Shown: piece by piece, positions 1,951 to 59,671 of the stretch
Layout of the letters: every line of letters begins with the position of its first letter
Numbering within the stretch: position 1 is the first letter of the stretch
Assembly: GCA_041651155.1 (NCBI GenBank)
Contig: JBAZJU010000002.1
Location: forward strand, 21,467 to 85,466
Length of the DNA: 64,000 nucleotides
Source: Patescibacteria group bacterium
GTDB lineage: Bacteria; Patescibacteriota; Patescibacteriia; CAIXNZ01
Direction of reading: 5' to 3'
Notes under the pieces: model-generated
What the model was told of the DNA's origin: nothing
The model's input: only the letters and a program-made list of their open reading frames with translations
The model's database searches: none
Position numbers and translations under genes: made by a program

Positions 1951-2440
1951 TCGGCCAGATAGCTCGTCTCGGCTGGGCAGACAAGCTTTTCTGTTATTAT
2001 AAAATTACATCCGAGCCGAAGCCGGGTAAGGCAGAGGTCTGCCGGCCTCCGCAAATTAAAATTATGGCCTGATAGCCAAGTAGTAAGGCAAGGGTCTGCC
2101 TGCCTTCGCAAATTATGGTCTGGTAGCCAAGCAGTAAGGCAGAGGTCTGCAAAACCTCTATACATGGGTGCAATTCCCATCCAGACCTAAAGACGTTGTT
2201 TGCTACGGCAGGTCAAAATCTAAGGTCCTCCGTAGCTCTTAGAGCGTAGGAGGACAAAACCCTTATGCGTGGGTGCAACTCCCACTCAGGCCTCCATGTA
2301 AATTTGCTTCGGCCAGTCAATATCTATTTAGATCCTCCGAAGCTCCGTAGGAGCGAAGGCGGACAAAACCTCTATGCAGAGTGCCTGCCCTCCATAGTTT
2401 TAACGAAGGAGGGCAACTCCCACTCAGGCCTAAAGCGTTA
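1951..2440 (+). repeat. cluster of tRNA-Cys-derived partial copies (three 5' units, two 3'-half units) with hairpin insertions
   Basis: Repeated GGYCTGRTAGCCAAGYAGTAAGGCAGRGGTCTGC units and repeated ...GTGGGTGCAACTCCCACTCAGGCC units. The minus-strand ORF 1926..2180 shows the internal repeats expected of this DNA. Confidence 0.6.
2117..2188 (+). tRNA. tRNA-Cys(GCA)-like gene, the only complete copy in the cluster
   Basis: Acceptor GGTCTGG/CCAGACC; anticodon stem GAGGT/ACCTC with loop CTGCAAA (GCA); T-arm ATGGG-TGCAATT-CCCAT; discriminator T. The D-loop lacks GG and T-loop position 55 is G, so it is atypical. Confidence 0.55.
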
Positions 2441-9075: not shown

Positions 9076-9112
9076 TAGAGGTTCGGCCTCCAATTTGGAG
9101 GCCGAACCTCTA
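9076..9112. repeat. REP-like perfect palindrome (copy 1)
   Basis: tagaggttcggcctccaatttggaggccgaacctcta, 7 nt after the polA stop; second copy at 42252-42284. Confidence 0.7.
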
Positions 9113-11108: not shown

Positions 11109-12080
11109 ATGATAATATTTTTATACGGTGAAGATACGTATAGATCAAATCAGAAACTCACCCAAATCAAAGCCAAGTTCCTCAAAGAAGTTGATAGTAC
11201 TTCTATGAACTTAACCACCTTAGACGGTGCCAAGCTTAAATTTGAAGAATTTAACCAGCAGGTCAAAGCCAGCCCGTTTTTAGCGCGCAAAAGAATGATT
11301 ATTATAAAAAATTTAATTTCTGAAAATAAATCCAAGGAAATCCAGAAAGAAGTGGTGGAACTTTTAAATTCAACTGACCAAAACGCTAAAGACGAAAATA
11401 TCCTGGTTTTCTGGGAAAGCGCCAGCCATTCCAAAACCAAGGGCAAAGACGCGCTTTGGACACGACTAGCCAAAGAAAAACTGGCTGAAGAATTTGAGCC
11501 CTTAAGACCGGCCCAACTTAATGCCTGGGTCAAAAAAGAAATTGAAACGCAAGGAGGCAAAATTGATAACCAGACCATTGCTTTATTAGCCGCCACTGTC
11601 GGCAATGACCTCTGGCAAATGGCCAATGAGATTACTAAGCTCACAAATTATTGCCAAACCAAGCCGATTACCGCTGCTGACATTGAAAATCTGGTCAAAG
11701 CCAAATTTGATGACAATATTTTTAATTTGGTTGATGCCTTAGGCAATAATAATAAAAAACTGGCTTTTAAATTAATGTCAGACCAATTTAATTTGGAAGC
11801 TGACGAAATGTATTTGCTTTCCATGCTAATTCGCCAGTTTAGAATTTTACTGGAAATTAAAGATTTAATAAATGAGCATCCTAAAATTACCAAAGATTTA
11901 ATTGCTAAAGATTTAAGCATTCATCCTTTTGTAGCTCAAAAAGCATTATGGCAGGTTAAAAATTTCACTTTTGCTAAGCTTAAACAAATTTACCAGCTCC
12001 TTTTAGACCTTGACTTTAAACTCAAAACCTCCCAATCAAAACCCAAGGTTCTTTTTGACCTCTTTATCGCCCAAATTTAA
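11109..12080 (+). CDS. holA: DNA polymerase III delta subunit
   Basis: LYGEDTY start and LWQMANEITKL, typical of HolA. Confidence 0.75.
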   Translation: MIIFLYGEDTYRSNQKLTQIKAKFLKEVDSTSMNLTTLDGAKLKFEEFNQQVKASPFLARKRMIIIKNLISENKSKEIQKEVVELLNSTDQNAKDENILVFWESASHSKTKGKDALWTRLAKEKLAEEFEPLRPAQLNAWVKKEIETQGGKIDNQTIALLAATVGNDLWQMANEITKLTNYCQTKPITAADIENLVKAKFDDNIFNLVDALGNNNKKLAFKLMSDQFNLEADEMYLLSMLIRQFRILLEIKDLINEHPKITKDLIAKDLSIHPFVAQKALWQVKNFTFAKLKQIYQLLLDLDFKLKTSQSKPKVLFDLFIAQI

Positions 12081-16673: not shown

Positions 16674-16728
16674 AAAATATAGGCTAATATTAGCAATAAA
16701 AGTGTTAATTTACTATAAATAAATAAGT

Positions 16729-16815
16729 CCCTGTAGTTTCCGCCCAAGGCGGATCAGCCTGTCTTGGCCAAGGCCAGGCCTCTGGCTGACAACGGATACA
16801 CTGACAATTAAATAA
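16729..16815 (+). repeat. 5' fragment duplicate of tRNA-Arg fused to a GC-rich hairpin element
   Basis: aaataagtccctgtagtt repeats the tRNA start and is followed by ccgcccaaggcggatcagcct...ggctgaca. Confidence 0.6.
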
Positions 16816-17289: not shown

Positions 17290-17580
17290 TAATATGGCTA
17301 TTTAGCTCCCACCTATGCACCTTTGGAGCTCCGGCTGGCAGGCAACCCTAAAATGACACCATTTGTGGATGTTTATCCTATTTTTACTAAGGGCAATTAG
17401 CTCCAGCCTAAAAGGGCCCCTTTGGGGCTGGTTAGAGCGTACGATTCACACCTGCCTGCCGTAGTATATAAATTCTAAAAATTATTAGCAAATATGGCCA
17501 TTTAGCTCACACCTACGCATACGCTTCGGCGGGCAGGCAGTTGGCTAGAGCGCTTCATTCACACCTGTCCGCCGAAATTA
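17290..17580 (+). repeat. three degenerate 5'-half copies of tRNA-Val with GC-rich hairpin insertions
   Basis: Each copy runs GGC(Y)ATTTAGCTC[insertion]..GTTAGAGCG..TTCACACC(TG) and stops just past the anticodon loop. Confidence 0.6.
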
Positions 17581-17581
17581 T

Positions 17582-17655
17582 GGGATTATAGCTCAGTTGG
17601 TCAGAGCGTACGGTTCACATCCGTAAGGTCAGAGGTTCAAGTCCTCTTAATCCCA
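17582..17655 (+). tRNA. tRNA-Val(CAC)
   Basis: GGGATTA..TAATCCC acceptor, anticodon loop TTCACAT, T-arm AGAGG-TTCAAGT-CCTCT. Confidence 0.85.
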
Positions 17656-17894
17656 ATACTTATGAAGGCGGATTGAAGAGGTCGCAGATTCAAGCCCTGC
17701 AATGGCCATACGAAGGCAGGTTCGTAAGGTCACTGGTTCAAACCCAGTATTGCCCACCTTTGTCCTACGAAGCTTTAGACGGTCGGTCTTCGGCCTTTAC
17801 AGACGGAAGTCGGCTACTGAGCCGACGAATGTCGTTAAGCACAGCCCACAAAACAACATTATTACTTATTACTAATTACTTATTACTAATTTAC

Positions 17895-21803: not shown

Positions 21804-22023
21804 TTTTTTTCTGTCAACGCCCAAATTTCACTTCATTTCATTCAGTGAAACTTCAGATAGCCCGAAACGTTATATGAAACATGCTTTTCTTTTTACGGCT
21901 AACCTGCCGGCAGGCAGGCAGGCGCCTAACAATTTTCTTTGCGCGAATCTTGCGCGAATCTTGCGCGAACCGCTATTTTGTGATATAATGCCAGCGTAGT
22001 CTAAAAAATCCATACTTCATAAT

Positions 22024-23079: not shown

Positions 23080-23385
23080 AAGCGATATGGCTACAGTTTG
23101 CATTTGCCCATTTAATTCCCCTCCGCCCTTCCCGCCAGAGGCGGACACAGCGTCCAACCTGCCTGCCGGCAGGCAGGAACGGAAAAAGAAAAGTATAGCT
23201 GGCTACCCCTTCGACTCCGCTTCGTTCCGCTCAGGGTCCGCCCATATTGTTCGTCTTAAGATAATCAAGATATACTATAAATAACTAATTCAAAACGAAC
23301 AACATCAGATATCCCGAAACGTTATCGGAAATTTTATTTGCCCTTAATTTTATTTTAATTTTACCCTTTTAATCTAAATTTTAAT

Positions 23386-34866: not shown

Positions 34867-34940
34867 AAGCGGGTGACCGGAATCGAACCGGCATCTCGAC
34901 CTTGGAAGGGTCGCATACTAACCATTGTACTACACCCGCC
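34867..34940 (-). tRNA. tRNA-Gly(TCC)
   Basis: Minus-strand GGCGGGT..anticodon arm CGACC-CTTCCAA-GGTCG..T-arm GCCGG-TTCGATT-CCGGT. Confidence 0.85.
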
Positions 34941-34983
34941 CAGATAAAAGTTTGTGCATTTAAAGCTTCAACCTTCTTTTATC

Positions 34984-35216
34984 TCAGCTAGAGAAAAAAT
35001 GGTTTAAACGAATCATCCATAAACTTTTATCTGGGCACGCAGTTATTTTATTTTCTTTTCCCGATTTATTTAAATATTCGGAAAGCATTGTCCTCAAAGT
35101 CGTTTTACCCTTGGTTGTCTTAAAATACTTTTCTCGTCTCAAGGCATCTGATTTATTTAAATATGCTTCGTAAAAAATCAAATCTAACGGCCGCCTATAT
35201 TTAGTTGAGGGACATC
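34984..35216 (-). pseudogene. N-terminally truncated GIY-YIG nuclease-family (UPF0213/YhbQ-like) remnant
   Basis: STKYRRPLDLIFYEAYLNKSDALRREKYFKTTKGK parallels the C-terminal half of ORF 36017..36283; in-frame stops remove the GIY half. Confidence 0.5.
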
Positions 35217-35420
35217 ACCATCATGATGTCTTTTTGTTCTTTCCGTGATGTTAGCGGTAAATCCAATATAAAAATTTTTATCTTTTTGAGATAACAAAAT
35301 GTATGTATAGTAAAACATATTCTGGGGTTAAGGCCATGCACCAGGCGGTGCACGACCATAAACCATTTACCTTACAGTAATGACGGACTCAAGACCCGCC
35401 ATAAACCGCATGGTTTATGG

Positions 35421-35494
35421 TCGGGCTGGTGGGACTTGAACCCACGATCTTCTGGTCCCAAACCAGACGCGATAGCCAACTTCGCTACAGCCCG
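35421..35494 (-). tRNA. tRNA-Pro(TGG)
   Basis: CGGGCTG..anticodon arm TCTGG-TTTGGGA-CCAGA..T-arm GTGGG-TTCAAGT-CCCAC..CAGCCCG-A; downstream hairpin ccataaaccgcatggtttatgg. Confidence 0.85.
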
Positions 35495-35639
35495 TAAATT
35501 ATTTTAAGATAGCCTCCGCCAGAGACTGGTCAGCCTTTGGCTGAAACTTCTCTACGGCCCGTTATTATTAATTACTAATCTTCAATAATTAATTTTCAAA
35601 AATTATAAATTGAAAATTGAGCATTGAAAATTCTAATTG

Positions 35640-35894
35640 TGCCTGGGGGCAGAATCGAACTGCCAACCTGCCTGCCGGCAGGCAGGCGCAAGGCTACGAA
35701 CCACTCACTTCGTTCGGGTGCATGGTAAATTTTTCAGCCTGCCCTGCACTAAAAATTTACTATTGCCGAAGGGCAGAATCGAACTGCCAACGCAAGGATT
35801 TTCAGTCCTTCGCTCTACCACTGAGCTACTTCGGCTCATTTGTATAATATTTTTTAGTGCAGGGTCCTTCGCTCTACCACTGAGCTACCCAGGC
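35640..35894 (-). pseudogene. disrupted tRNA-Phe-like gene split by nested insertions (outer gene)
   Basis: 5' half GCCTGGGTAGCTCAGTGGTAGAGCGAAGGAC at 35894-35864 and 3' part CCTTGCG[CCTGCCTGCCGGCAGGCAGG]TTGGCAGTTCGATTCTGCCCCCAGGCA at 35694-35641, interrupted by an intact tRNA-Phe flanked by 15-bp inverted repeats. Confidence 0.55.
35764..35835 (-). tRNA. tRNA-Phe(GAA), intact, nested inside the disrupted copy
   Basis: GCCGAAG-TA-GCTCAGTGGTAGAGC-G-AAGGA-CTGAAAA-TCCTT-GCGTT-GGCAG-TTCGATT-CTGCC-CTTCGGC-A. Confidence 0.85.
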
Positions 35895-36016
35895 CCGATA
35901 AAAGTCTGCGTATTTAATGGATAAACAATTATTTAACCGCTGATCAATTTAAAATGTTGAACCAAATAATACCTAAACTTTTATCGGGCCAGAGGCCTTT
36001 ATATTATATTTAGCCT

Positions 36017-36283
36017 CTACTTTTTTATAATATTTTGCAAAAAATTCTTTAATCTTTTTTTGAGATATCTTTTCCCCTGACCGCTTTTTAAAAACTTCTC
36101 ACGTTTTATTGCATCATATTTATTTACACAACATTCATAATAAATTAAACAAATTGGCAATCTATTTCTAGTTGAAGGTACTTTTCCTGCCAAATGTTCC
36201 TTGTGTCGCTTTTTTAAATCCGAAGTATACCCGGTATAAAAATTTAAATCTTTTTTGCTTAAATAGACATAAACAAAATACAT
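36017..36283 (-). CDS. GIY-YIG nuclease family protein (UPF0213/YhbQ-like, 88 aa)
   Basis: YFVYVYL...FYTGYTSDLKKRHKEH (GIY-YIG half), conserved R/E, and YDAIKREKFLK; no SD; starts 27 nt after tRNA-Ile. Confidence 0.7.
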   Translation of the reverse strand: MYFVYVYLSKKDLNFYTGYTSDLKKRHKEHLAGKVPSTRNRLPICLIYYECCVNKYDAIKREKFLKSGQGKRYLKKRLKNFLQNIIKK

Positions 36284-36310
36284 AATTTTATTTTTATTTT
36301 AATTTTTGTG

Positions 36311-36384
36311 TGGACGTAGATGGACTTGAACCATCGACCTCGTCATTATCAGTGACGCGCTCTAACCAACTGAGCTATACGTCC
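36311..36384 (-). tRNA. tRNA-Ile(GAT)
   Basis: GGACGTA-TA-GCTCAGTTGGTTAGAGC-G-CGTCA-CTGATAA-TGACG-AGGTC-GATGG-TTCAAGT-CCATC-TACGTCC-A, immediately 3' of the 16S. Confidence 0.85.
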
Positions 36385-36688
36385 CGATAAAAGTCTGCGT
36401 ATTTTATCATTATATGCGGACTTTATCTACAATAAACAAACTACATTTTTTCTAAATTTTACATAAACTTTTATCGGGACACGTCCTAAAAAAATTTTTA
36501 GCTTGATAAACCAATTTTATCAAAAAAGACTGGCTCAATCAAGATCTAAAAGTTGATATTAACTAAGCCAGTCTTTTTAAATTGAGCCTTAACGCCTAAA
36601 AAGTGATAGAATCGTCGTCTGCCTCAAGGTTGAGGCTCGACCGATAGAGTAAAGGGCCTTTACGGTCATTTTACTCAAATACTCCCTA

Positions 36689-38190
<1,502 letters not shown>

Positions 38191-38584
38191 ATGTGATATT
38201 AAAGTATATCACGGACTTATTGTAGAAGTTTTAAACTTCAAATGATTTGACGATTCTATCACTTTTTAGTTGTCAAAGCTTCGCCTTGAATTTCTAATTC
38301 TTGATTTTTGTAAATCTCGAGCGAAGTCCCGAGTCCCGCTACGCGGGACGAGGGATCCATTCCTTCTTTTTTTAAAGAAAGAAAAAAACAGGGAAATCCA
38401 TTGTCTTTTTAAATTATCCCGCTCCGCGGGATTTTTAATAGATTGAATTTGCCTGTTTTTTTCTCCTCCCTTCGACTCGCTCCGCTCGCTCAGGGCAAAG
38501 CCCTTGCCAATATTCTTGCGACCAAGGATATCATCGAAAAAATAAATTTTATTAAGAGTAATTGAAAATTTTAAAGGTTATTTT

Positions 38585-38620: not shown

Positions 38621-39575
38621 GTCAAGGGGTTGTTATGGTTCAATACCTTTGCACCACCCTGTGGTAAGCTTGGGTATATGCCATACACTATGAATCCAAA
38701 ATTACCGCGTCTGCGCATGCAGACTGCGAAGCTCGTATTAAAACAAGGTTGGAGTACGCGACAAGCTGCCAGATATACAGGATTTGACCACAGCACTATT
38801 GTCCGTTGGGTTAAGAAAGCAAGGTTAAGTAACAAACGGATTATTCCCACTGAAAGTTCACGCCCTAATCATCATCCCTTAGCCATTTCACACAAAATTG
38901 TCAGTGCAATTTTAGGGCATCGGGACAAGTATCATCGGTGTGCTGAAGTTATCCATTATCAATTAAACAAAGACGGTATTGTTGTAAGTTTGTCTTCTGT
39001 TAAAAGAACGCTAAAACGTTATGGCCTAATTTACCCGAGCAAATGGAAAAAGTGGCATGTTTATCCGCCTCGTCCAATAGCTGAAAAACCTGGGGTTTTA
39101 GTTGAAATTGACTCAATGCAGGAAGGTTTGCCTGCAGAACATTTACACCTCTATGCCTTAATTGATACCTGTTCTCGCTGGGGATTTGCCAAGCCGGTAA
39201 AAATAGTTAATTCCTGGCAAAGCGCCAAGTTCTTTCTAGAGGCTAAGGATAAAGCATTATTTACTTTCCGTATGATCCAATCAGACAATGGAAGTGAATT
39301 CGCCAAGTGGTTTAACAAACAACTGTTGGCTTCGGGAATTGAACATCGCCATTCTCGGGTAAGAAGACCGACGGACAACGGGCACGTTGAAAGATTTATT
39401 CGGACCATACAGCAAGAGTGTTTAGCCCGAAATCCTAGAAGTTTTAAAGCTTGGCAAAAAGCTATTCCTGAATTTATTAATTATTACAATACCGAGCGTC
39501 CACACATGGGGATTAACATGAAAACACCCCTTGAAGTGGTGCGAAGCTATTGACCAGAAAACAGGGGTTTTTTGG
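38610..39575 (+). mobile_element. IS481-family insertion sequence (approximate ends)
   Basis: Transposase ORF with HTH and rve DDE core. Imperfect terminal inverted repeats TGTTATGGTTCAATACC (left) and GCTATTGACCAGAAAACA (right), the latter overlapping the stop codon. Confidence 0.7.
38678..39553 (+). CDS. IS481-family DDE transposase
   Basis: N-terminal HTH (STRQAARYTGFDHSTIVRW) and integrase core with D..D..E (VEIDSM...QSDNGSEF...ERFIRT). Confidence 0.8.
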   Translation: MPYTMNPKLPRLRMQTAKLVLKQGWSTRQAARYTGFDHSTIVRWVKKARLSNKRIIPTESSRPNHHPLAISHKIVSAILGHRDKYHRCAEVIHYQLNKDGIVVSLSSVKRTLKRYGLIYPSKWKKWHVYPPRPIAEKPGVLVEIDSMQEGLPAEHLHLYALIDTCSRWGFAKPVKIVNSWQSAKFFLEAKDKALFTFRMIQSDNGSEFAKWFNKQLLASGIEHRHSRVRRPTDNGHVERFIRTIQQECLARNPRSFKAWQKAIPEFINYYNTERPHMGINMKTPLEVVRSY

Positions 39576-41982: not shown

Positions 41983-42498
41983 TTATCGGTTATTCCGTGA
42001 ATCTGGGCATTGGTGTTTTACATAGACGGAAAGCCAAAGCAAATGGTCAAAAGAAGTTATTTGAGTCGCTTTAAATTTACCTTGGAATAACACTCCGTTT
42101 CGATTATTTTTAGTATTGAAATACATAGTATAAGATGTCCCTAAACGCTGCATGAATTTTATAATACCGTTTTCTGCTAATTGCCTTACTATAAAATGAT
42201 AATGATTGGGATTTAAACAGTAACAGATAAATTCTACCAGGGGGTCGCTCAAAGGTTCGGCCTCCAAATTGGAGGCCGAACCTTGATCGCCTTGGTCGCC
42301 TACCTTAACTATTTCATTTATCGCTCTTTCCCTCAAAAACTTCCGATAAAACCCACCATCAACTTTGTTAGTATTGAATTCTGTCATGCTTTTTAAGAAT
42401 CTTAAATAATCGCCTTCGTCTAAAAAAACATCGCGTTTATCAACACCGCGATTATAGATATGGTAATATTCGTTATTATTGAAAATTATTTTTCGCAT
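41983..42498 (-). CDS. RAYT/IS200-like Y1 (HuH) transposase carrying an in-frame REP insertion
   Basis: YHIYNRG, HuH motif HYHFIV, GVLFQGKF and Tyr in SVYVKHQ; segment GDQGDQGSASNLEAEPLS is encoded by the palindrome at 42252-42284. Confidence 0.65.
   Translation of the reverse strand: MRKIIFNNNEYYHIYNRGVDKRDVFLDEGDYLRFLKSMTEFNTNKVDGGFYRKFLRERAINEIVKVGDQGDQGSASNLEAEPLSDPLVEFICYCLNPNHYHFIVRQLAENGIIKFMQRLGTSYTMYFNTKNNRNGVLFQGKFKATQITSFDHLLWLSVYVKHQCPDSRNNR
42252..42284. repeat. REP-like palindrome (copy 2), inside the RAYT-like gene
   Basis: aaggttcggcctccaaattggaggccgaacctt with adjacent direct repeats ccttgatcgc / cttggtcgcc. Confidence 0.7.
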
Positions 42499-59036: not shown

Positions 59037-59300
59037 TCAAGGCACTGGATCATGACCGCCTGGAGAAAGAGGATGGCAACGTACAATTCTTTTAATGCCC
59101 AGCCAGCTGCCTTTAATTATGCCATATTTTGAAATTGCCTGATATGTGTATTCGCTGCACGAAGGATAGAATCTACAGCCTAAAAAAGGAAAAATTTTAG
59201 ACATAAAACCATGATCAAAGGATAAAGTTTTTTGATAAAGCCTTATAACCATTAAAACTACTATGCGCAGTTGGAAGCTAAACCATTTAGTAATTTTCAT
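59037..59300 (-). CDS. yidD: membrane protein insertion efficiency factor YidD
   Basis: [10 protein letters not shown] motif. Confidence 0.85.
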
Positions 59301-59671
59301 ACTAGCAATTTGGCCTTAAATAATGTCTGGGATAAAATCTCTCCCATTTTTTTATATTCTAAAACCTTGCCTTGCTTATTAATAATTTTGGGGGAGAGGA
59401 TAATGATAATATCATAACCGTTTTTGATGCTGGAGATATTTAAGCGGATGAGTTCGCTCAAGCGCCGCCTGATTAAATTCCTTTGAGTTGCCTTCTTGCT
59501 TACCTTTGTTGAAACAATTAAGCCAAAACGCGACATATTTAAATCATTCTTAACATACCTAATTAAAAAAACAGGGGCATAGGCTGTCTGGCCCTCTTGA
59601 CTGACTTTGGCAAAATCATTTTTTTTCCTTAAGCGATAAATTTTTTTTAGCATAAAATTGTCCTGATACAA
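59297..59671 (-). CDS. rnpA: ribonuclease P protein component
   Basis: [11 protein letters not shown]...[23 protein letters not shown] RnpA pattern; follows rpmH. Confidence 0.85.

Follow-up and report, generated by a model that had tools for sequence, protein, structure and literature searches.

The 64-kb stretch of Patescibacteria DNA analyzed here (hereafter the window) carries, downstream of its 16S rRNA gene and on the same minus strand, a cluster of tRNA genes in which three hairpins of about 100 nt abut tRNA-Gly, a nest of tRNA-Phe genes and tRNA-Ile. Our findings suggest that these hairpins are probably copies of a non-coding palindromic mobile element, resembling a miniature inverted-repeat transposable element (MITE), that is specific for the termini of tRNA genes. 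The first-pass annotation of this DNA had described the three hairpins and had considered, among other explanations, a small mobile unit directed at tRNA 5' ends and equipped with a GIY-YIG nuclease gene. The hairpins were recovered as near-perfect palindromes of 99-100 nt, and the Ile and Phe copies do have an identical 22-nt arm in common. Targeting of tRNA ends is supported by flanking direct repeats, dispersal, presence/absence differences, and partial and non-tRNA copies, whereas carriage of the nuclease gene is not, since that open reading frame (ORF) always lies outside the palindrome. In total, about 82 kb of the source genome were read; the minus strand is the tRNA-sense strand, and the contigs or loci compared with the window are labeled L001, L002 and so on.

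Structure and conservation of the palindrome

The arm motif has six matches in the window, forming three pairs, against 0.41 expected, and no short-range inverted repeat in the 64 kb ranks above these pairs. Each window copy folds end to end as a hairpin (-30 to -36 kcal/mol, z = -5.4 to -5.7). The sample comprises 23 canonical and three diverged copies from about 13 independent loci, and the 23 curated copies were used to build a covariance model. Element length is 98-102 nt in all 23, with conserved arms of about 19-21 nt that follow the consensus G-N-CC-(A/C)-GATAAAAGTTTRTGT ... ACAYRRACTTTTATC-(T/G)-GG-N'-C. The interior between the arms is AT-rich and variable in sequence but constant in length; in the six window and L001 copies measured, the gap from GATAAAAGTT to RACTTTTATC is 69-70 nt. 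No ORF is contained within the element. A known RNA family was also considered and set aside: nothing in Rfam reaches the gathering or E-value threshold, and Rfam 15 gives just spurious miRNA-precursor matches over the hairpins (E ~0.01-0.6).

The stem consists of 19 consensus pairs, with 98.6% of cells paired across the 23 copies compared with 48% or less in slid controls. Its covariation is strong, with 36 double-change cells against 9.2 +/- 2.4 in shuffles (0/500 reached the observed value) and seven pairs changed on both sides. For instance, CG, GC, UA and AU all occur at column 2/101 (N:N') without a broken pair, and the Gly copy has CCCAGAT/ATCTGGG where CCCGAT/ATCGGG is found elsewhere, a compensatory A/T insertion matched in both arms. 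The ends of the palindrome are equally regular: exactly five Watson-Crick pairs follow GAT/ATC in 21 of 23 copies, and a G:C pair is always terminal.

The right arm runs into the tRNA gene, whose opening nucleotides form its final 2-5 nt. Because N' corresponds to tRNA nucleotide 2 or 3, the right tip of the palindrome is the tRNA start itself. The stem had initially been described as ending at tRNA +1; instead, the palindrome takes in the first four nucleotides of tRNA-Ile, three of tRNA-Phe and two of tRNA-Gly.

Direct repeats and junctions

Directly outside the left arm lies a 5-9-nt direct copy of the tRNA 5' acceptor strand. Over 12 independent loci, left flank and right junction have a longest common string of 5.25 nt on average, compared with 3.28 nt for mismatched pairs, and no derangement in a permutation of these loci equalled the observed mean. 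Exact repeats include GGACGTGT at tRNA-Ile (8/8), GCCCTCG at tRNA-Arg (7/7 in three genomes), GGGCTGTAG at tRNA-Pro, GTCCTCG at tRNA-Arg(GCG), GACTCG at tRNA-Lys, GCGGAG on the antisense strand of tRNA-Ser, and GCCGTTG in L025 (CAACGGC on the plus strand). Other repeats are inexact: those at Phe and Ala contain a 1-nt insertion, the one at Gly lacks 2 nt, and at Leu only GGCC is in common.

The direct repeat overlaps the palindrome tips, which is atypical for the target-site duplication of a MITE. When the right end, the repeat and the left end are joined, they form a perfect palindrome around a 2-5-nt center, such as ATCTGGAC-GT-GTCCAGAT, which is how a circle junction or the core site of a recombinase would look. 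Two readings of the junction fit the data. Either the acceptor 5' strand represents a 6-8-bp target duplication to which the left tip is complementary, or a 2-4-bp duplication lies inside the tRNA and the right tip of the element re-supplies tRNA nucleotides 1-4, in which case templated correction of near-palindromes would maintain the complementarity of the left tip.

Distribution across Patescibacteria

Genome and metagenome collections were scanned for GATAAAAGTT-N60-80-RACTTTTATCNGG, a pattern that requires both arms, and the covariance model was then applied. As to further copies of the arm, a question left by the first-pass annotation, none occurs elsewhere in the 64-kb window, and copies are present in other Patescibacteria contigs, titled Parcubacteria, Falkowbacteria or "Patescibacteria group". 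The element stands at the 5' end of tRNA-Ile in the window, L001, L018 and L021, and at the 5' ends of tRNA-Phe and tRNA-Gly in the window and L001. It likewise precedes tRNA-Arg(CCT) in L011, L016 and L017, tRNA-Ala(GGC) in L011 and L016, tRNA-Arg(GCG) in L019 and L029, tRNA-Leu(TAA) in L022 (with a diverged copy in L002) and tRNA-Lys in L031. A diverged copy adjoins the 5' end of tRNA-Pro in L047, and a copy read on the minus strand adjoins that of a degenerate tRNA in L025, with a 7/7 repeat. At tRNA-Ser(TGA), in L010, L019 and L029, the element is found at the 3' end, in an orientation that makes the antisense strand at that end resemble a 5' acceptor strand. Copies without a recognizable tRNA are present at L021 2241-2372, where the element lies at the end of a protein gene and its right arm is broken by another small palindrome, in L026, and in L010-b, which retains the left flank of the Ser site; Rfam finds no structured RNA gene beside the L026 and L010-b copies.

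The 1.3-kb metagenome contig L001, reached through the closest homologue of the window GIY-YIG protein (82% identity), is syntenic with the window. It carries the spacer, a hairpin, tRNA-Ile, a GIY-YIG gene, a hairpin, an intact tRNA-Phe, tRNA-Pro, and finally a hairpin, here without a preceding GIY-YIG gene, and tRNA-Gly.

Single matches in L006, L008, L012, L014, L023, L024, L027, L028 and L032 were set aside as chance occurrences of the pattern, and a phage origin was dismissed, the arm pattern having no match in viral contigs. Matches in L007, L009, L013 and L015 belong to an unrelated Acetobacteraceae repeat, a palindrome of about 87 bp in Komagataeibacter and Gluconobacter (GATAAAAGTTTTTGG...CCAAAAACTTTTATC) that was caught only through a common 10-mer.

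Evidence for mobility

Orthologous tRNA genes differ in whether they carry the element. The Phe and Gly sites are occupied in the window and L001 and empty in L018 and L021. In L018, the closest relative, only the Ile copy is present, and ahead of its Phe and Gly genes lie GIY-YIG genes but no hairpins; the L021 tRNA cluster similarly has only the Ile copy, and no GIY-YIG gene. The tRNA-Arg(CCT) gene carries the element in L011, L016 and L017 and lacks it in the window, while tRNA-Ala has it in L011 and L016 and lacks it in L017. L025 offers a filled site comparable with four empty neighboring tandem units, each with a single CAACGGC on the plus strand. Within this region (L025 1-560), a unit of about 120 nt is present in at least four tandem copies; read on the minus strand, every unit contains a 5' fragment of a tRNA whose D-loop bears a GC-rich palindromic insert, and the hairpin sits in the last of them.

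The variable interior groups copies across loci and not by orthology. Identity reaches 90% between the Ile copy of L021 and the Lys copy of L031, which come from the same metagenome, 84% between the Phe copy of L001 and either of these, and 76% between the Phe and Gly copies of L001; the orthologous Ile copies of L001 and L021 are outside these similar pairs. In addition, solo left arms, each with its own short repeat, lie 30-45 nt upstream of full copies in seven places (L001 694; L010 7366; L011 3673 and 3715; L016 5434; L019 7093 and 8127), whereas no solo right arms were found. This stacking suggests repeated hits on one tRNA end, with older copies lost directionally.

Several copies adjoin only a tRNA 5' fragment, namely those at window Phe, L016 Arg, L029 Arg and L031 Lys, with a complete tRNA gene further downstream past another insertion. 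The Phe hairpin of the window thus does abut the tRNA-Phe nest, as first described, but its partner is the broken outer 5' half and not the intact inner gene. An element kept on a tRNA relic is unlike a functional leader. In L017, moreover, the left repeat is preceded by a promoter region that is conserved in the window (TTTCACGTGAAACA ... GCTAATATTAG), and the element sits between this promoter and +1 of tRNA-Arg.

Taken as a candidate MITE, the element has terminal inverted repeats, a small non-coding body, a flanking direct repeat, and dispersed copies with presence/absence polymorphism; a cognate autonomous insertion sequence (IS) with the same ends was not found in the window or the compared loci, none of which contains an arm pair enclosing an ORF.

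GIY-YIG genes of the tRNA cluster

The features of the window cluster are collected in Table 1. The spacer between the 16S rRNA gene and the Ile palindrome is about 200 nt. The absence of a 23S gene from the 64-kb window, stated in the first-pass annotation, was confirmed. The roughly 82 kb of source genome contain nine intact tRNA genes, three hairpins and three GIY-YIG genes, and no hairpin is found there at tRNA-Pro of the window or at the other six tRNA loci.

Table 1. Features of the tRNA cluster in the window, in the order of transcription on the minus strand.
Feature	Position	Strand	Evidence and remarks
16S rRNA	36690..38191	-	Rfam SSU_rRNA_bacteria, 1457 bits, model positions 1-1533; tRNA cluster downstream on same strand
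Left direct repeat, Ile	36479..36486	-	GGACGTGT, copy of tRNA-Ile nt 1-8 (GGACGTAT); final 2 nt double as first 2 nt of palindrome; 8/8 identical in L001 and L018
Palindromic element, Ile copy, 100 nt	36381..36480	-	Covariance model 82 bits; right tip GGAC = tRNA-Ile nt 1-4
tRNA-Ile(GAT)	36311..36384	-	ARAGORN and Rfam
GIY-YIG ORF, intact, 88 aa, UPF0213-type	36017..36283	-	Pfam PF01541, E = 5.5e-12; 100% identical NCBI protein with Patescibacteria annotation
Left flank, Phe	35991..35997	-	GGCCTCT; GGCCT = G at -1 plus outer tRNA-Phe nt 1-4
Palindromic element, Phe copy, 99 nt	35892..35990	-	Covariance model 89 bits; right tip GCC = outer tRNA-Phe nt 1-3
Outer tRNA-Phe, 5' half, 31 nt, disrupted	35864..35894	-	25-nt exact repeat of inner tRNA-Phe
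Inner tRNA-Phe(GAA), intact	35764..35835	-	ARAGORN and Rfam; cassette within 14-nt inverted repeats 35851-35864 / 35742-35755
Outer tRNA-Phe, 3' part	35640..35693	-	Split by 20-nt perfect palindrome CCTGCCTGCCGGCAGGCAGG at 35667-35686
tRNA-Pro(TGG)	35418..35494	-	ARAGORN and Rfam; without hairpin
Second GIY-YIG paralog, full length, one frameshift	35040..35318	-	N-terminal frame 35318..35184; C-terminal frame from 35211
Palindromic element, Gly copy, 99 nt	34938..35036	-	Covariance model 83.5 bits; right tip GC = tRNA-Gly nt 1-2
tRNA-Gly(TCC)	34868..34939	-	Rfam coordinates; ARAGORN one base longer

The intact 88-aa gene begins 27 nt past tRNA-Ile without a Shine-Dalgarno sequence, as had been noted, and its stop codon lies 19 nt ahead of the Phe left repeat; the ORF is outside the palindrome. 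The second copy, previously called truncated, has its full length and a single frameshift after ...HHDGDV, and its identity to the intact copy is 46% across 83 aa; its open frame runs on into the Gly hairpin and stops at 34984. The frameshifted gene fits a decaying selfish gene. Both paralogs match PF01541 at 46-55 bits, the domain covering residues 1-71 of the 88-aa protein, so that this protein is the GIY-YIG catalytic domain alone. Its best relatives in the Protein Data Bank (PDB) are 1zg2 and 1ywl, both UPF0213 proteins (BH0048 and EF2693), which makes the earlier "YhbQ-like" label a fair one and places the protein in UPF0213. An I-TevI- or Seg-type homing endonuclease was considered and rejected because such enzymes combine the catalytic domain with a linker and a C-terminal DNA-binding domain, and the 88-aa protein has no DNA-binding domain; the score against TIGR01453 is 17.6 bits, with a cut-off of 56.

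GIY-YIG genes lie shortly past the 3' end of a tRNA or transfer-messenger RNA (tmRNA) twice in the window and in L001, L002, L003 and L018. They stand directly upstream of a hairpin at the Phe site of the window and L001, at window Gly, at the Leu site of L002/L022 and at Pro in L047, with the stop codon 1-95 nt from the repeat of the hairpin. This adjacency, at 4-5 independent loci, is more than we would expect by chance. Each component nevertheless occurs without the other, and the GIY-YIG genes are separable from the palindrome: hairpins lack a GIY-YIG gene at the Ile copies, L001 Gly, L017, L019, L021 and L031, and GIY-YIG genes lack a hairpin in L018 (twice), L003, L051, L042, L043, L045, L033, L039 and L041. 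A functional link between nuclease and palindrome is possible. The expectation that these genes would always be tRNA-adjacent in relatives holds for part of the close homologues only; it fails in L042, L043, L045 and L051, and the homologues from other phyla with about 60% identity (Amesbacteria, Celaenobacter, Marinimicrobia) are not beside tRNAs either. In L018, one GIY-YIG gene sits inside a broken tRNA-Phe, ahead of a replacement tRNA-Phe, which looks like the behavior of a homing endonuclease.

Some further GIY-YIG loci were also recorded. A third gene of the same genome, encoding 81 aa, lies about 3 kb to the left of the window (L051 6328-6573), directly after a DEAD-box helicase gene, with no adjoining tRNA and no nearby hairpin. 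In Amesbacteria (L033-L038), distant homologues are found beside genes for PF05635, the 23S rRNA intervening-sequence protein, and in another lineage (L045/L046) the GIY-YIG gene is two genes from a weak match to a Y1 (IS200/RAYT-like) transposase; no tRNA occurs within 1.5-2.5 kb of these loci.

Interpretation and alternative explanations

The proposed element would be a miniature inverted-repeat-type mobile element, or a palindrome akin to a recombination site, that inserts at the ends of tRNA genes and duplicates acceptor-strand nucleotides, so that an intact tRNA would be regenerated. A transposase or a site-specific recombinase would mobilize it. Copies downstream of promoters or in the rRNA-operon spacer should consequently be transcribed as part of the tRNA precursor, in which the hairpin would fold and then be discarded when RNase P cuts at +1. 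RNase III may first cleave the stem, by analogy with Correia elements, the observation here being one of folding potential alone. RNase P protein is encoded in the window (~59297-59671; L050 7512-7868), and removal with the leader at +1 would thus be the expected fate, making the tRNA 5' leader a safe place for the element. On this view the GIY-YIG genes, coding for small UPF0213-type nucleases, would be distinct from the element and would likewise settle in tRNA clusters, in many cases immediately upstream of it.

Several observations weigh against this proposal. No transposase or recombinase with matching ends was found in the window or the compared loci. The only transposase in the window, an IS481/IS3-like gene (rve, HTH_23; 38630-39553, plus strand) just upstream of the 16S promoter region, was rejected as an autonomous partner, its terminal repeats (38640-38657 / 39536-39553) being unrelated to the hairpin arms. 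None of the empty sites among the compared loci is both strictly orthologous and flanked by identical sequence on either side. Moreover, the complementarity of the left tip to the first nucleotides of the target is not predicted by plain cut-and-paste with target-site duplication. The sample is small, and decayed copies are under-sampled because the scan pattern requires both arms.

Some features would also fit a leader hairpin selected by the host, that is, an RNA element of the pre-tRNA or rRNA spacer that guides processing, for example as an RNase III site, or masks the tRNA 5' end, and that would spread and homogenize among tRNA loci by gene conversion. The compensatory covariation of the stem, the constant length and 69-70-nt gap, and the inclusion of tRNA nucleotides +1 to +4 in the stem are all compatible with such a role, and transcripts of Correia hairpins are precedents as RNase III substrates (PMC10969869). 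In 18 of 23 copies, folding is more favorable for the tRNA-sense strand (mean 2.1 kcal/mol, p = 0.016), and the wobble (G-U) pairs of the stem are strand-specific, which hints at an RNA-level or single-strand constraint; the 16S-tRNA-Ile spacer, in turn, is occupied in all four genomes that show it, which could mean selection. Nonetheless, the hairpin is dispensable at orthologous Phe, Gly, Arg and Ala genes of relatives, lies at the 3' end and antisense to the tRNA at tRNA-Ser, adjoins a broken tRNA half at window Phe, and exists in copies apart from tRNAs, while direct repeats and sequence-conserved arms are superfluous for a purely structural RNase III substrate. We therefore regard a host-selected leader as unlikely, though it keeps some weight given the strand bias in stability and the strand-specific G-U pairs. 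A processing role as such is possible but superfluous for explaining the data.

A composite mobile unit, in which the palindrome, as a cruciform or hairpin, would be the recognition, cleavage or homing site of the GIY-YIG nuclease and solo palindromes would be non-autonomous, is in our view improbable. It would account for the order GIY-YIG, direct repeat, hairpin, tRNA at 4-5 independent loci, and for L047, where the only hairpin-bearing tRNA of four is the one preceded by a GIY-YIG gene. Within the GIY-YIG group, enzymes of the Slx1/URI type cleave branched DNA and hairpins, and SegB of phage T4 is a GIY-YIG homing endonuclease lodged in a tRNA cluster. The ORF, however, is never within the inverted repeats or the direct repeat, many hairpins and GIY-YIG genes occur apart, the 88-aa protein lacks a DNA-binding domain and scores below the TIGR01453 cut-off, and no near-identical pair of GIY-YIG gene and hairpin was found at two different sites.

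The possibility that the hairpin is a portable promoter cassette driving each tRNA, raised earlier as a shared promoter module, is very remote. The TATAAT reported from the AT-rich loop does occur in the Ile copy, which also contains TAGATA-17-TAAAAT, and motifs resembling TTGAAA-(15/16)-TAATAC are found in one subfamily (L001 Phe, L021 Ile, L031 Lys); MITEs such as Correia are also known to carry promoters (PMC10969869). Yet only one of the three window copies matches sigma-70, with none in Phe or Gly, the regional count of nine is at the level of shuffles (6.3 +/- 2.7), and the -10-like hexamer is not conserved in the alignment of copies. In addition, the native promoter of L017 is upstream of the element, and the Ile copy sits within an rRNA-operon spacer. 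A promoter or terminator module was accordingly dropped as a candidate, scans for both being at chance level.

Relation to known systems

Like the Correia/NEMIS, ERIC and RPE MITEs, the mobile element proposed here is a non-coding unit in the ~100-200 bp range that can fold as a whole through its terminal inverted repeats, with short flanking direct repeats, many dispersed, nested and partial copies, and, as predicted here, co-transcription with its neighbors. Unlike those MITEs, for which the targets are short generic sequences such as TA within intergenic DNA, it is placed with nucleotide precision at tRNA termini, its tip derives from the tRNA, and no cognate IS was found. A 2024 review of prokaryotic MITEs does not mention tRNA (PMC10969869), and the literature consulted yielded nothing specific on a tRNA-end MITE or on nested tRNAs in the Candidate Phyla Radiation (CPR).

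A closer parallel in location is provided by fungal mitochondria. Palindromic GC clusters and PstI palindromes flank tRNA genes there and were first proposed to be processing signals and later regarded as transposable-element-like (Yin et al. 1981 and others, as cited in PMC4478555). These and the double-hairpin elements are likewise short, mobile-looking palindromes flanking tRNAs, in genomes that also carry GIY-YIG or LAGLIDADG endonuclease ORFs. The fungal palindromes, however, are GC-rich, about 40 nt long and organellar, with an AG-type target, whereas the Patescibacteria element is AT-rich, about 100 bp long and bacterial, overlaps tRNA +1 to +4 and has a 5-9-nt acceptor-strand repeat.

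The element also recalls the attC sites of integrons, which are imperfect palindromes of 60-140 bp with conserved ends, a variable center and strand asymmetry; in both, the right-end core is copied directly left of the complementary left end, often after a small promoterless ORF. It differs from attC in its location at tRNA ends and in having the ORF outside the repeat-bounded unit. An integron attC was ruled out as a candidate, given that the arm consensus has no RYYYAAC/GTTRRRY cores and the loci read contain no integrase or cassette array. Similarly rejected were REP/BIME, REP/RAYT and IS200/IS605, for which a 20-40-nt GTAG palindrome, or subterminal hairpins lacking both inverted termini and a target duplication, would be expected, whereas the element is one palindrome of 100 bp that has inverted termini and is accompanied by a direct repeat.

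tRNA genes are safe, conserved landing sites for integrative elements, which use tRNA 3' ends, and for Ty3 and the Dictyostelium TRE; the integrative elements bring along a copy of the tRNA end and so restore the gene. All of these are kilobase-sized with their own integrase or reverse transcriptase, and the bacterial ones target the 3' part of the gene, unlike a 100-bp non-coding palindrome found mostly at the 5' end. As with segB of T4, the window GIY-YIG genes sit between tRNA genes, although they lack the DNA-binding domain of Seg proteins; one study reportedly describes a role of SegB in phage T6. Precise tRNA-end placement, a tRNA-made tip and an acceptor-strand repeat are found in none of the bacterial MITEs, fungal palindromes or attC sites considered as the nearest precedents.

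If this is correct, a tiny non-coding bacterial element uses the tRNA 5' boundary, and sometimes the 3' boundary, as a precise landing site and rebuilds the gene end that it disturbs. It would account for the recurrent 100-nt "leaders" in tRNA and rRNA operons of the CPR that annotation pipelines ignore, and would caution against taking such leaders for regulatory RNAs. The conserved arms and defined junctions would also offer a handle on the responsible enzyme and on the role of the ubiquitous small UPF0213 GIY-YIG proteins.

Nested tRNA genes and other small repeats

Nested tRNA genes were observed in the window at 17394-17757 and 2000-2290 (plus strand) and at 35640-35894 (minus strand), as well as in L011 (3845-4065) and L021 (1121-1370). 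In these nests, the native gene is split in the anticodon loop, at 37/38 in tRNA-Val and after about nucleotide 32 in tRNA-Phe, by a cassette within short inverted repeats (CCTGCC.../...GGCAGG, or CCCTGCACTAAAAA/TTTTTAGTGCAGGG for Phe). The cassette holds a complete tRNA with the same anticodon and a different acceptor stem, and the tRNA-Val nest of the window has three levels. The inner gene looks like an invading replacement, since the outer halves match the intact L016 orthologue almost perfectly. ARAGORN and Rfam call the inner genes only. ARAGORN additionally reports a 93-nt "tRNA-Cys" at window 17666-17758 that overlaps the 3' halves of the nested tRNA-Val genes and lacks Rfam support; it is probably an artefact of the nest.

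A second type of tRNA-directed insertion is present at window 16728-16815, L016 5243-5318, L029 ~667-744, L031 3625-3748 and L001 1209-1290. It comprises a 12-13-nt tRNA 5' fragment (29 nt in L001), an insert starting with (T)CCGCC... or CCGCCTACGC..., and a complete tRNA copy, and its duplication begins exactly at tRNA +1, like the repeat of the hairpin.

If the proposed reading of the palindromes holds, their occurrence in one window with nested tRNAs suggests a leading role for tRNA genes as sites of selfish-DNA activity in the reduced genomes of these bacteria. A joint reading of palindromes, nuclease and tRNA cassettes as one tRNA-centered, structure-guided mobilome of Patescibacteria can be formulated, although we consider it doubtful as a whole. 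It would have the palindrome recognize the base of the acceptor stem, at the 5' or 3' end, and rebuild the first tRNA nucleotides from its own tip, while the adjacent 88-aa UPF0213 GIY-YIG protein may cut or mobilize the palindrome, acting structure-specifically on hairpin or cloverleaf DNA. Cassettes with a replacement tRNA gene would invade the resident anticodon loop or D-arm, and the duplications, always starting at tRNA +1 and reaching to helix boundaries (nucleotides 7-8, 12-13, and anticodon-loop positions such as 32 or 37/38), would all reflect a single mechanism.

The 20-nt perfect palindrome CCTGCCTGCCGGCAGGCAGG has four matches in the window against zero expected. Copies lie at 35667-35686, in the variable region of the outer tRNA-Phe, at 23158-23177 and at 21899-21922, and another is found at L018 ~11845-11865, in the 16S-tRNA-Ile spacer. 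Its two halves are similar to the cassette ends in the nested tRNA genes, so that it may be an empty form of the cassette.

Past the 3' end of tRNA-Pro, where CCA is encoded, CCATAAACC...GGTTTATGG occurs twice (window 35345-35430, minus strand). The arms 35350-35366 / 35410-35426 are 94% complementary and take in the last tRNA nucleotides; this inverted repeat may be a trailer hairpin or a terminator. Finally, two copies of a perfect 16-18-nt palindrome, (TAG)AGGTTCGGCCTCCAA / TTGGAGGCCGAACCT(CTA), lie at window 9076-9112 and 42252-42284 and may represent a common terminator or another small repeat family.

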